Translations under genes and position numbers: made by a program
The notes under the pieces: model-generated
Seen by the model: the letters and a program-made list of their open reading frames with translations, nothing else
The model's database searches: none
Told to the model about the DNA's origin: nothing
Assembly: GCA_951406725.2 (NCBI GenBank)
Contig: OX597826.1
Coordinates: forward strand, 27,590,001-27,654,000
Direction of reading: 5' to 3'
Length of the DNA stretch: 64,000 bases
Origin: Octopus vulgaris
Taxonomy: Eukaryota
Shown: piece after piece, positions 25,892 through 63,135 of the stretch
Position numbering within the stretch: the first letter of the stretch is position 1
Layout: each line of letters begins with the position of its first letter

Positions 25892-27596
25892 GTTTCTTTA
25901 TTAGCCACACAGGGCTGCACACAGATAGAACAAATTACAAGGTAGAGCTTTTCTTTTGAAGGTAAAAAAAAAAAGAAAAGGGGGGGGGGGCGATCAAAAG
26001 GGATCGTAAAAGGAGAGAAAGAGGACAAAAAAAGGTGGGGGTTAAAAAAAAAATTGATCAATAGGGATCATTATCACAGAAATGTCAATATGAAGTGTAA
26101 AGGGGAGGACAGGTGAGGTTTACCCGTGGAAAGAAAAGCCTACGGAAAAGACCACGGTAACCTCGGTCAATGCAACTCTGTATTAATTAATAAGCAACTC
26201 TGTATTAATTTTTACGGTTCATAGAATCATAGTCAAGGTGGCTTCGTCATTCATACGTGCTATCCTTGCTACATTCACCCATCTTTTTTTAAAACATTCA
26301 CTAGACAAAACTTGCCTCTCTACTCACTTTTTCTTCAAGTGATACTTGAAGAAGTTGATGAGAGATTGACCAGAGAGGAAAGTGTTTGTCTCTAATCCTT
26401 TCAGGCGCGTCCACCAGATACATTCTTTCGCCATAGCCACAAGTATGATAAAAATAGCTCTTCCTTCCCGTTTGAAGGAAGGAGGCGTGACGATATTAAT
26501 GATAGACTCGGCTGATAAACCGACACGTCCCACACGTGACAGCAGTCGTTCGACATAAGCCCACAGGTGGGAAATTGCTGGACACTGCACGATTGCGTGC
26601 AGAGCGGTTTCGTCGCTCTGCCCGCATCTCGGGCAGGTCGGCCCCGTGTTTCTCGAGCCATGCCTATAGAGCTTATCCCCAACGGGTAGCGCTTCTCGGT
26701 AGCACCGCCAGGCCAGGGATCTCTGGAAGTTGTCCATAGGTCCCGGGCCGAAAGTCGTTTGAAACAGGCGGGTCAGGTATTCCTCGTCGACGCCCAGGTT
26801 TGCCCCGAGCTCGTCGTCGTACCTCCCCTCCACTAATCCCCTATAGAATGCTTTGGTTGCGTTGAAGTCACTCAAGGTCGACCCGGGACGGCAGAGTTGC
26901 TTGAGAGCAACGCGACACTCGCGGTGCCATTCGCCCTTCCTCGGCCTCTTTTTGATCCACGACTGTAGTTCGGTCATGGAGACGAGTTGCGGGAATGCGT
27001 GCCTCACAAACGGCGACCACACCTGTTCACCGTCGTCTACATGGAGCCGGAGATGGCGCAGTCTCAGCGCGTGTCTGCGCATCATCAACCACGGCATGCC
27101 CAGCCCTCCTTTTAACGGGTGTTGACAGCAAATGGATCGCCTGACCATCGGGACGCATCCTTTCCACAAGAAGCGGAAGAGGATGCGTTCTAGTTTGGTG
27201 ATGGTAGGGTCGGGACAAGGTACGACGGTCAGGCGGTAGTAGATGATGGACGCGATGTACGCGTTCACCACCTCCGCCCGACCTTTTAGGGACAGTTTCC
27301 TCTCGGCCCATTGCTGGGCGAGAGTGACCACCCTACTCGTTATCTCGTTCCAGTTCTTCTCCATTTGGAGGTCCGGACCGAACCAGACCCCGAGCAACTC
27401 AACCGGGCCGTCTGTCCAGCGTCCCACGACGGAGGTACTGGTAGACGGCATGGGCTTGCTTCTCCAGGTGCCGAGCCATAAGCCCACTGACTTTTCCCGG
27501 TTGATTTTTGCTCCTGTCACCGCTTCGTAGTCTTTCAGTGTCTCGCCGACCCGCTCGATGTGCTCGTGGCTTGACACTATGACGGTGACGTCGCCA
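25892..27596 (-). mobile_element. 5'-truncated L1/Tx1-type LINE in (GATA)n, subfamily B
   Basis: The 417-aa ORF 26324-27577 is closely similar to the C-terminal third of ORF2 at 42202-45651. Truncated at the YADD motif, small indel near the C-terminus, 3' UTR ending aataaagaaaca. GATA tracts on both sides. Confidence 0.95.
26324..27577 (-). pseudogene. Truncated LINE ORF2 (RT C-terminal region and zinc finger)
   Basis: [39 protein letters not shown]. Confidence 0.9.
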
Positions 27597-27828
27597 GATA
27601 GATAGATAGATAGATAGATAGATAGATAGATAGATAGATAGATAGATAGATAGATAGATAGATAGATAGATAGATAGATTGATAGATAGATAGATAGATA
27701 GATAGATAGATAGATAGATAGATAGATGGATGGATGGATGGATGGATAGATAGATAGATAGATAGATAGATAGATAGATAGATAGATAGATAGATAGATA
27801 GATAGATAGATAGATAACTAGATAGATA
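27597..27828. repeat. (GATA)n microsatellite at LINE 5' junction
   Basis: Seen directly. Confidence 0.95.
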
Positions 27829-29237
27829 GGGCATAGTCATTTCAGAGTGACACTGAGAGAAAAGACGGCACATAATAACATGAAAATGAATGAGAACAGA
27901 ATATTATATTTATGCTAATTTCGAGGAAACAGAAAAAGAAGAGGGAAAGGCAGAGTGCATAATAAAGTGGAGAAGTGAGATAGAACATGATGGTGCTGGT
28001 GATAGAGCGAGAATGTACATGATAATGTGGACAAGAGAGACACGTGACTGAGCATAATAATGTAGAGAAAATAGAGAAAAAGAAATACAATGTATTAATA
28101 TGGGCAATAATGTATGCAGAACATAAATTAACATGAAGCGGTGGGGGTGGGGAGTATGATAATATGGAAAAATAAAAGATGAAACAGAAAATGATAATGT
28201 AGAAATGATGGTAGAGAAAGAAGGTGAGAGAAGCAGAGACAGAGAGACAGAGAGGTAGTGAGAGGGATAGGCAGAAAGAGAGGGAGAGAGAGTTTGAAAG
28301 TTTGAAGGCGGGAAAAGAAAACGGAGCTTGATAACGTGGAGGAGGGAAAAGAGAATATGAAAGAGAAATACGTGATAAGGAAGAGCGAAAATAGCAAGAG
28401 AGAGAGGGAGAGGGGGAGAGAGGGAGAGGGGGAGAGAGGGAGAGAAAGGAGAGAAAGGAGAGAGTGTGTGTGTGAGAGAGAGAGAGAGAGACACACACAC
28501 AGAAAGAGGGACACACACACACAGAAGGAGAGTGAGACACATAAACACAGAGAAAGAGATAGAGAGAGAGATATACGCACACACTCATACAGAGAGAGAG
28601 AGAGAGAGAGAGAGAGAGAGTCACACACATAAACAGAAAGAGAGCGAGAGAGAGAGAGGGCTGGTTGATATGATAATGTCGAAAGAAAACCGAGTGGAAC
28701 ATGATAATGTGGCGAGGAGAGATAGAGAGAAATGCAGGAGGAGATAATGTAGGGGACAGATATGATAATGTTGGAAGCTGGTGCATGAAGATGTGGCGGT
28801 GAGCTGCTGCGTGATAATGTAGGGGAAAGAAAGAAATGTGATGTGATGCTTAGAAGAAGGAAAGGAAGAGAAAGATAGACAGAGGATGAGAGCAATAGAG
28901 AAAGAGTAAGAGAAGGGGAAGAAGGCAGAGAGTGAAGAAAGTAAGGGAGAGAGATAAACAGAGAGAGGGAGGGAGAAAGAGAGAGAAATGTTGTGCGTCT
29001 GAGACACACAGCAAGAGAAATAAAGACACCGTGAATCAGTGTTAGCGGGAGAAATATATGTGGAGAGAGAGAGAAAAAGAGAGAAAGAACGTTGATCGTG
29101 TGTGTGCGTCTGTATGTGTGTGTGTGTGTGTGTGGTGGAGTTAAAAAAATAGAGAGAGAGAGAGGGAGAGACAGAGAGAGAAAGAAAGAGAGAGGGAGAA
29201 TTATCGTAATAGAGAGACAGAGAGGCAGAAAGACGAA

Positions 29238-60400: not shown

Positions 60401-62509
60401 CCACTTGCACGCATACTTCCATCAAACTGCTAGTCTCATGATAATAGTAGTCACCATTTCTGAGTTTATTATCATTAATTTTTATGCCGGCTACGTTTTG
60501 GTTAATCATGGTCGCCATACTTACTTTGAATTCATTAATCATATGATAAATCGGAAATATTTTAATCTTATAAATCGACTCCAGAAGACACGTATTCATA
60601 GATTTATAGTAAATCTAATACAAATAAGTCTATATGTTTAAATTAAACGATTTTCAAAGCATGTAAACGTATCAATTATGTATTGGATACTGATCATCAA
60701 AAGATACAGATTGTACCAAGTCTTTTCTTAATTATTATCTTTTTATTTCGTTTTATATCATGTTATTTTATTATTTTTTATATTATGTTATTTTTTTAAT
60801 TTATTTTTTCTTGTGAATGTTACTCAGGCTGAAATGTAAAGGTTAGACGTTCTAATAGCAGAAGTTCAGAAAATGAAATATAAATATTAAAATTAAAGAG
60901 CGAATAAAAAACTACAAACAAGATTAATAATTTGTCTAACGCAAAATACTAATTAAGATTACGACAGTAAAATGTGTCTGTATATGCGTGCGTTTATATG
61001 CGAATATATGTATACGTGTGTGTATGTATACATCCATATATACATACGTACATACATACATATGCACACACACACATACACACACATACATATATATATA
61101 TAATTGCGTAGGTATGTGTGAATATGAGGGAATAGATAGATAGATAGATAGATAGATAGATAGATAGTGTGGGGGGAGAATGGGAATGAGAGAGAAATGA
61201 TTAAAAATACTATATACTAAAATTATTTTTAAATTTCCCAAACAAAAAAGGAAAAAAAACACACACAAACACACACAAAGCAGAGACAAAAAATAATAAA
61301 AACAAAGCAATACCAACCACACATTGCCACTACTTCAAATTCGTGTCACTTTGAAAGTAGCCAATTATAATATTGATGAGGAAGATTTTAGAATAATTAA
61401 TCAACCTGAAGCAATTAATTCAAATAATTAGTGATTAAGTTTCAGATGGACGGGAAAAACTTCAGCATACATTTAAAAGTTATAAAACAATTAAATAAAT
61501 ATATGTTTAATAAATAAATAAATAATTGTATAAATATATAAATGGTATTACCTTATTTGGAAGGTGGAGTGTGGGATTTAAATCTATACACTGAGAAAAG
61601 ACTGAAGTCTAGATTTATTTAGAATCATGCCACAGCACGCACTCTCTCTTTTAACATATATATATATATATATATATATATATATATATATATATATATA
61701 TACATATATATATACATATATATATAAACACACACAGATACATACACACACACACGAGGGTGTGTATATATATGTCTCTCTGTGGGTTTCAATGTAAAAG
61801 TTTAGGGCGTACATGGTGTATATAGAAGTATACACATGTATATACATCGCAATAATTTCTATGTAATGGCGATGTTTTGGTTTTTTTTTTAGATATTTTC
61901 AAATGTATTTTTCGTTTTCTTTCTATCATTTGATTAAATAGCCTCAATTTGGTTTCATAATCTCTTTCTCATTTCGATCTCTTTTAAAGTTCTACATCTG
62001 TCTGTTGGTCTTTCTGTCTGCGTGTCTGCTGCTCCGTTTTTCTTTCCCTCTTCGACTCCCACCTCTCTCTCACTCTCTCTCTAATTCTCTCTCTCTCTCT
62101 CTCTCACTCTCTCTCGCTCTCTCTCTCTCTCTCTCTCTCTCTCCCAATATATTTGTTGTCTGCATGTATAGAGACATTCAAACGCACATTTGAAGATGAT
62201 GATGATGAACATCATCATCATGGTCATAACGATGATAGTAATCATGATCATGGTGTATCTTTATCTCTCTCTCTCTCTCTCTCTCTCTATATATATATAT
62301 ATATATATATATATATGGATATAAAGATACCCCACGGTTGTGTATGTGGGAGTGTTTGTGTAAACATAAATATGCATCTATCTAACTATCTATATCTATC
62401 TATCTATCTATTTATCTATCTATCTGTCTATCTATCTATCTATCTATCTATCTATCTATCTATCTATCTATCTATCTATCTATCTATCTATCTATTTGTC
62501 TATCTATCT

Positions 62510-63135
62510 GTGGCTATGGCGAAAGAGTGTATCTGGTGGACGCGTCTGAAAGGATTGGAGACAAGCACTTTCCTCTCTGATCAACCTCTCATCAAATTCT
62601 TCAAGTACCACTTGAAAAGGAAAGTGAGAGTAGAGAGGCAAGTTTTGTCTAGCGAACGTTTTAAAAAAGATGGGTGAATGTAGCAAGGATGGCACGTATG
62701 AATGACAAAGCCACCTTGAGCATAATCCTATGAACCCAGAAATTGAAAACAGAGGGTTACCCACTTGCAAACAAATGTGGTAACATATAACAATATTGAC
62801 CAAGGTTAAGGTGGTCTTTTTCGTAGGCTTTTCTTCCCACGGATAAACCTTACTTGCTTTCCCCTTTACATCATACATCATGACACTGTGATACACGATC
62901 CCTATTGATCGTTTTTTTCCTCTTTTTTCTTCTTTTTTCATTTTTCTTTTCTTTTGTTCCTTTTCCCTTTTTCATTTTTTCTTTTCCTTTTTTTCTTTTT
63001 TTTGTTCTTTTTTCCCTTTTACGATCCCTTTTGATCGAAAACCTACGCCACCTTTTTTTTTCTCCCCCAAAAGAAAAGCTCTACCTTGTAACTTGTCCCA
63101 TCTGTGTGCAGCCCTGTGTGTCCAATAAATAAACT
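62510..63135 (+). mobile_element. 5'-truncated L1/Tx1-type LINE in (TCTA)n, subfamily B
   Basis: AMAKECIWWTRLKGLETSTFLS...FFKYHLKRK plus a 3' UTR matching 25892-26220; TCTA at both junctions. Confidence 0.93.

Follow-up and report, generated by a model that had tools for sequence, protein, structure and literature searches.

Among the long interspersed elements (LINEs) of the Tx1 clade, Dewa and Mutsu are families with a specific insertion target. Microsatellites can also be such targets: the Tx1 families Kibi and Koshi of teleost fish, which carry an apurinic/apyrimidinic-type (APE) endonuclease, are specific for (TC)n and (TTC)n, respectively (PMC4494074, PMC3812793), and crocodilian Tx1 families prefer the tetranucleotides (TTCC)n or (TTTC)n (PMC4494074). 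Waldo (ACAY) and Mino (AC), which belong to the R1 clade, and Dong of the R4 clade, at (TAA)n, are microsatellite-specific too (PMC3812793), as is the non-long-terminal-repeat element Togen at (TG)n (PMC4640811). Yet how APE endonucleases pick microsatellites is poorly understood (PMC3812793). Here we describe an L1/Tx1-type LINE lineage found in a 64,000-nucleotide stretch of Octopus vulgaris DNA (contig OX597826.1, positions 27,590,001 to 27,654,000; “the window” below). Very probably, this lineage occupies (TCTA)n/(GATA)n tracts that were already present, its copies facing one way, and it likely gets there through an APE nick of the GATA strand followed by priming at that site.

Five related copies were found in the window (Table 1), at the places and on the strands that the initial annotation had given, with two ends refined to 27595 and 45958. 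All five carry sense-strand (TCTA)n at their 5′ junction. None lies within the AT (80), AC (31), AG (29) or AAT (28) tracts of the window, as had been claimed, and six further GATA tracts carry no element. TCTA was also said to follow the 3′ ends, and it does so directly or, for the copy at 31290–31385, beyond TA and then (TATG)n, the exception being the copy at 46168–46224, where a single perfect unit is accompanied by degenerate ones. Nonetheless, the five copies are not one family but belong to at least three subfamilies that are 75–92% alike, nor do they represent five independent target clusters, as the copies starting at 40073 and 46168 share the tract 45959–46168, leaving four.

The same junctions recur genome-wide. 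A search with the 3′ end of subfamily A gave 2,083 candidates, 40 of which were scored; in the 38 further copies retrieved whole, which are 95–99.6% identical to the full-length window copy and mostly full-length themselves, TCTA is present at the 3′ junction in 38/38 and at the 5′ junction in 35/38, the three exceptions being an internal duplication, a join to a copy of another subfamily and an N gap. The initial annotation had taken the 5′ TCTA as evidence regardless of copy length. This stands for truncated copies and is weaker for full-length ones, some of which share a (TC)nTAT pyrimidine leader that must be transcript-derived, so that truncated copies weigh more at this junction. Among the best matches to subfamily B (30 loci), TCTA was present at 12 of 13 visible 5′ junctions, and truncated young B copies (among 16 loci) had it in 11/11, at 11 different truncation points. 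Because choice by similarity was to be avoided, 40 B ends were also sampled in position order along contig C1, starting from the 11th listed match and omitting 6 whose distance to the preceding one was within 10 kb. At 35 visible 5′ ends, 26 (74%) had at least two TCTA units and 23 at least three, against a same-strand background of 1.2% and 0.8%, respectively, in 120 kb of arbitrarily chosen genome (range 0.7–1.2%); among copies at identity ≥93%, the count rose to 19/21. A majority of genomic copies without 5′ TCTA, the result that the initial annotation had named as fatal to its reading, was thus not seen in any of these three B sets. Of the nine negatives in the position-ordered sample, one has an inverted 5′ end and a long tract at the 3′ side, while the other eight have no TCTA on either side (5′/3′ table 23/3/1/8, Fisher p=6e-5), which excludes an obligatory tail encoded by the element. 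Seven of the eight off-target copies begin with ATAT, and this seems to be the most that the element brings. In PMC4494074, a family counts as target-specific when one sequence type occurs in >20% of flanks; here, the proportions are 74% at the 5′ and 77% at the 3′ side. The junctions are TCTA and not the (TC)n or (TTC)n of Kibi and Koshi; a TC run was found at 1/35 sampled 5′ junctions (L383). As side observations, the copies L081:2216–2867 and L391 are inverted at the 5′ end, a pattern known from L1 twin priming, and L035 is a junction of two subfamilies.

At the 3′ side, the last 24 nt of subfamily B occur exactly 6,104 times in the genome, and TATCTATC (two perfect units) follows within 3 nt in 4,707 of these (77%). 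All subfamilies share one layout, without poly(A) and with AATAAA 4–10 nt from the junction, and the junction phase is fixed within each subfamily; the full-length window copy likewise ends without a poly(A) tail. An abundant short interspersed element (SINE) with a similar 3′ tail has TCTA after its end in 0/24 cases. This SINE, present in the window at 21858–22076 (+) and ~59720–60100 (−) and at many background loci, has ~45 nt of its 3′ tail in common with the LINE lineage and often occurs as partial copies in tandem, linked at a single internal motif; it may be mobilised by another member of the LINE lineage.

It is highly likely that the TCTA tracts were there before the insertions, since the two flanks of a copy share locus-specific repeat variants and 21/38 young subfamily A copies immediately follow another family member, with a tract in between. 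Within a locus, the left and right tracts share variant 9-mers with a Jaccard index of 0.150, versus 0.051 between loci (0/10,000 permutations), where 65/80 copies were informative and the own partner was the best match in only 9. Moreover, perfect runs on the left are not shorter than those on the right (medians 62 vs 44 nt, n=61). The preference of the lineage for pre-existing GATA tracts, as the initial annotation read it, is supported by these data. A long target-site duplication as the rule was considered and is not claimed here: several copies repeat a compound tract of 100–200 bp on both sides, although strict suffix/prefix identity fails, and in L039, L051, L059, L061 and L064 the duplication is at most 6–9 bp. 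Higher-order repeats are also seen in an element-free background tract (L213). In the window, positions 39811–39990 recur near-exactly in 45959–46168, so that a compound microsatellite of ~150–180 bp flanks the full-length copy on both sides, either as a long target duplication or as a higher-order repeat of the tract. In addition, the same truncated B fragment lies on either side of a full-length A copy at L038, and two nearly identical loci, L024 and L064, lie at a distance of 23 kb from each other; both cases are local duplications within element arrays.

A sister lineage in the same genome uses another repeat. From a background locus we reached an old family, F (copies ~82% alike; L235–L284), with (ATT)n at 32/43 3′ ends and 18/46 5′ ends, two loci being counted twice, against a background of 6.6%; none was flagged for TCTA. 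From F, a young family, G, was found, 5,869 bp long with an intact ORF2 (open reading frame 2) of 1,144 aa that is 71% identical to that of A, the endonucleases of G and A/B being ~67% identical. Its 3′ end gave 1,388 candidates, and (ATT)n was present at 31/31 3′ ends, 8/8 full-length and 5/7 truncated 5′ ends (L308–L351), one of the two 5′ exceptions being an N gap and the other an internal boundary; in the first 13 regions examined it was present at 9/9 full-length and 3/6 truncated 5′ ends, with two loci overlapping between the two sets. G also forms head-to-tail arrays in which neighbouring copies are spaced by 3–11 ATT units. In a DNA tree built from 18 natural copies, A, B, C and E (TCTA) form one lineage and F and G (ATT) another, each with a Shimodaira–Hasegawa-like approximate likelihood ratio (SH-aLRT) support of 100; the tree gives no direction for the change between GATA and TAA. 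The TAA target is shared with Dong, whose endonuclease is restriction-like. In contrast, G carries an N-terminal APE domain (E=3.6e-17), which excludes that it is a Dong element; R4 is in fact listed among the clades with a restriction-like endonuclease (PMC4640811).

Target-primed reverse transcription is the established route of LINE insertion, so the TAGA strand would be nicked first, probably at a T|A step. For A, B, the other subfamilies and G alike, the 3′ junctions are compatible with a start in register AT, which fits a T|A nick in both lineages, though ambiguously, as the RNA end is itself target-like. The transcript would be cleaved just beyond AATAAA, and a few target-like bases (from about ATAT to UAUCUA) would pair with the nicked strand; read-through bases pairing with the primer would explain both the fixed phase and the missing poly(A). 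A second nick would then fall within the same tract, mostly with a short duplication or none, and the 5′ end may be joined by small microhomology. Microhomology of ≥2 nt was observed at 10/24 clean junctions versus a null expectation of 12%, with 17/41 junctions omitted (14 with extra or unaligned bases and 3 without a tract).

As for what selects the repeat, the endonuclease is the likelier determinant and the RNA tail its main rival. Targeting set by the endonuclease is the established rule for Tx1 and R1 elements (PMC4494074, PMC1950540, PMC1919474), and the octopod endonuclease may itself confer GATA specificity. A hairpin loop of such endonucleases, credited with reading the target in L1/Tx1, was shown to influence target choice, with another surface loop indicated for R1Bm (PMC1950540). 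If the endonuclease does select the repeat, loops other than the canonical hairpin probably determine the choice between GATA and TAA, to judge from the loops at ORF2 residues ~115–120 and 146–163, which differ consistently between the lineages, old F copies included. It is possible, if rather unlikely, that the RNA mainly sets the target, a loose endonuclease nicking at T|A and only those ends being extended that pair with the read-through tail (UCUA for A/B, AUU for G); the tract would be pre-existing in this case as well. Such a role of the RNA would agree with the near-identity of the hairpin loop in B and G, with the position of AATAAA 4–10 nt from a junction without poly(A), with the single phase of each subfamily, with the ATAT start that is kept in 7/8 off-target copies, and with the base pairing at initiation reported for other LINEs (PMC6007223). 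Yet off-target copies have no TCTA run, hence the copied tail would be very short, the two other loops follow the lineages, and 11/61 young copies have a perfect 3′ repeat of <12 nt while long 5′ tracts are the rule. Going further, one could imagine that two still-active lineages switched between GATA and TAA without a change in the hairpin, the 3′ bases of the read-through RNA picking the repeat in a self-reinforcing, RNA-programmed targeting. We consider this doubtful; if true, target choice could be redirected by altering the tail.

The remaining explanations dispense with a chosen target. Microsatellite tails at the 3′ end are common in LINEs (PMC6007223, PMC13295347), and TCTA could be such an encoded tail, as in RTE, CR1 or L2, with insertion at random sites and 5′ tracts arising from template jumps of the reverse transcriptase or from later expansion. 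Template jumps could yield tandem copies with short tracts in between, and the old family F does have (ATT)n more often at its 3′ than at its 5′ ends. However, off-target copies are tail-less, truncated single copies have long, compound and locus-specific 5′ tracts, neighbours in arrays differ in age, and a duplication outside the tracts that brackets tract, element and tract was found in 1/40 cases versus 2% in the control. The encoded tail is thus largely refuted and we regard it as very improbable. Even less credit can be given to unbiased insertion followed by persistence or accumulation of copies in GATA tracts through selection, recombination or segmental duplication. Passive accumulation was proposed near CA repeats for Drosophila Waldo-A/B (PMC3812793), and at least one pair of duplicate loci exists here (L024/L064). 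But the youngest copies show the strongest bias (the 19/21 at ≥93% identity), the bias follows one strand and is exact to the base at the junction, and it differs between two coexisting sister lineages.

Some observations weigh against insertion into pre-existing GATA tracts directed by the endonuclease. A raw census of all segments, before removal of false matches and distant sister families, gave only 64/89 truncated ends with TCTA; among its 25 negatives are 7 spurious low-complexity matches as well as gaps internal to alignments, spacers of two units and distant sister families, and with identity limited to ≥80% the count is 62/68. About a quarter of the position-ordered copies (8/35) are off target or have lost their tract. 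In the old subfamily E, two or more units were read by eye at the 3′ end in only ~8/19 loci, which fits decay with age or a looser early specificity. The canonical hairpin loop, in an alignment to the L1 endonuclease, hardly differs among A, B and G. Furthermore, the permutation test lacks full independence because tracts are shared between neighbouring copies, and the assembly may not give correct repeat counts. No empty alleles were seen in the sequence runs examined, which makes the evidence for pre-existence indirect; the ORF2 stretch is present in 20 runs, which come from 10 studies and three coded organisms and include no RNA run on record, and four contig runs compared with the 3′ end gave no information on junctions or expression.

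The copies belong to an L1/Tx1-type LINE lineage with an APE endonuclease and a reverse transcriptase (RT). An N-terminal APE domain, an RT, a C-terminal zinc-binding region, an upstream ORF1 and variable 5′ truncation are all present, as in the APE-type L1 group, and ORF2 matches the Pfam families Exo_endo_phos (1.7e-16), RVT_1 (3.9e-30) and zf-RVT (7.5e-6). Human L1 has the same ORF2 architecture, and L1 ORF2p/EN are the best relatives of the endonuclease and RT among solved structures; the octopod element differs from it in its CCHC-type ORF1, repeat-specific insertion, lack of poly(A) and a much weaker RT match. A CCHC zinc knuckle in ORF1 is typical of the Tx1 clade. In this case the zf-CCHC match is weak (E=0.0019, under the Pfam cut-off), with the motif visible in A and B ORF1, and no ZCCHC3-type RNA-binding domain was detected in ORF1 at E 0.01. 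Among named proteins, one of Argonauta hians comes closest (68% across the RT region). The Alligator protein that bears the name “transposon TX1” shows 41% identity in this region and scores 256 bits by BLASTP, against 139 bits for human L1 by phmmer, a comparison across different programs. Membership in the Tx1 clade appears likely from this pairwise proximity. Only quick trees were built; in the one for RT, without Tx1 references or an L1 outgroup and with an unresolved backbone, A, B and Argonauta share a starred clade whose sisters are unnamed proteins, and the TX1-named Alligator protein does not group closely with the window element. A close clade of unnamed proteins is 40–54% identical.

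ORF1 of the full-length window copy has a one-base frameshift in the A run 40351–40357. It is open (621–629 aa) in L031, L052, L053, L054, L058, L059 and L068, and both ORFs are open in 5/38 other subfamily A copies (L031, L052, L053, L054 and L068). Subfamilies A and B appear to have been recently active, given that young B copies are 99–100% alike. A and B are only 38% identical in ORF1 and 82% in ORF2, and full-length B copies (L181, L187, L189 vs L182, L192) have at least two different 5′ ends, one of them identical to the first 56 nt of A (window 40073–40128); the two 5′ ends and the ORF1/ORF2 contrast point to an exchange of 5′ modules between subfamilies. No Rfam match of note to a ribozyme or known RNA family was found within the element, an atlas search returned generic APE+RT clusters only, and a single-sequence fold of the endonuclease was poor (predicted local distance difference test 41) and was not used. 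In scans for relatives outside octopods, a first metagenome scan and a viral scan gave no match, while a second metagenome scan gave 80 mostly distant loci (most 22–35%), none with a TCTA tract of ≥5 units. One metagenome contig (L135) has a related RT fragment, 48% over 144 aa, amid several copies of what we take to be U2 small nuclear RNA-like sequence, presumably the setting expected for a Keno-like element.

In the literature searched, which excluded Repbase/Dfam, Kojima and Fujiwara 2004 and the supplements and Fig. 3 of PMC4494074, no LINE targeting GATA/TCTA was found; the class of microsatellite-picking Tx1 elements is already known, and (GATA)n as a LINE target was not met in print. 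Kibi and Koshi are set apart from the octopod element at (TCTA)n and its sister at (ATT)n by their described targets; the initial annotation had named TCC for Kibi, where PMC4494074 and PMC3812793 give (TC)n. An expansion of L1-Tx1 elements in coleoids was reported (PMC8967140), and the repeat annotation of O. vulgaris holds 80 L1-Tx1 families covering 56 Mb, 13 of them recently active with 421 near-full-length insertions (PMC13282606). These consensus families may well include ones like A, B and G; the main text and one supplement of that study describe no target preference for them. In addition to the (GATA)n target, an APE-type element at (TAA)n is added. As the genome holds sister lineages that target different repeats and each have intact young copies, it offers a system for testing target-site switching, and the pair of A/B and G bears on the engineering of site-specific retrotransposons. 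With thousands of copies, the elements are also relevant to octopod genome annotation and to GATA-type markers, whose flanks may be element ends.

Table 1. Copies, coding regions and repeat tracts of the LINE lineage; positions refer to the window, except for the last row.
Feature	Position	Strand	Remarks
Full-length LINE, subfamily A	40073..45958	+	~5.9 kb
ORF1, CCHC zinc knuckle	40273..42122	+	
ORF2, 1146 aa, intact	42211..45651	+	APE-type endonuclease, reverse transcriptase (YADD), C-terminal zinc-binding region
AATAAA signal	45949..45954	+	4–6 nt upstream of 3′ junction; same layout across subfamilies
Compound (TCTA)n tract, 5′ of full-length copy	39708..40072	+	
Compound (TCTA)n tract	45959..46167	+	3′ flank of full-length copy and 5′ flank of 57-bp copy
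57-bp 3′ fragment, older subfamily E	46168..46224	+	best genomic relatives 81–91% alike
5′-truncated subfamily B copy, cut within YADD codons	25892..27595	−	90–92% to young B, 80% to A
(TCTA)n tract at its 5′ junction	27596..27829	−	
3′ tract of the same copy	25833–25890		
96-bp 3′ fragment, B-like	31290..31385	−	5′ tract 31385–31450
626-bp 5′-truncated copy	62510..63135	+	ORF2 end and 3′ untranslated region; 76–81% to other copies
Tracts of the 626-bp copy	62393–62509 and 63136–63147		
Family G example	C5:1617500–1632000		L317, L318

Two further elements of the window are worth mentioning. A 5′-truncated LINE end at 5914–6660 (−), which we take to be Dong/R4-like, has a zinc knuckle and a restriction-like endonuclease-type motif, lies between trinucleotide tracts and ends at (AAT)n. 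At 32563–33087 (+), a 174-aa open frame with a weak GIY-YIG match (E=0.026) is probably a Penelope-like fragment.

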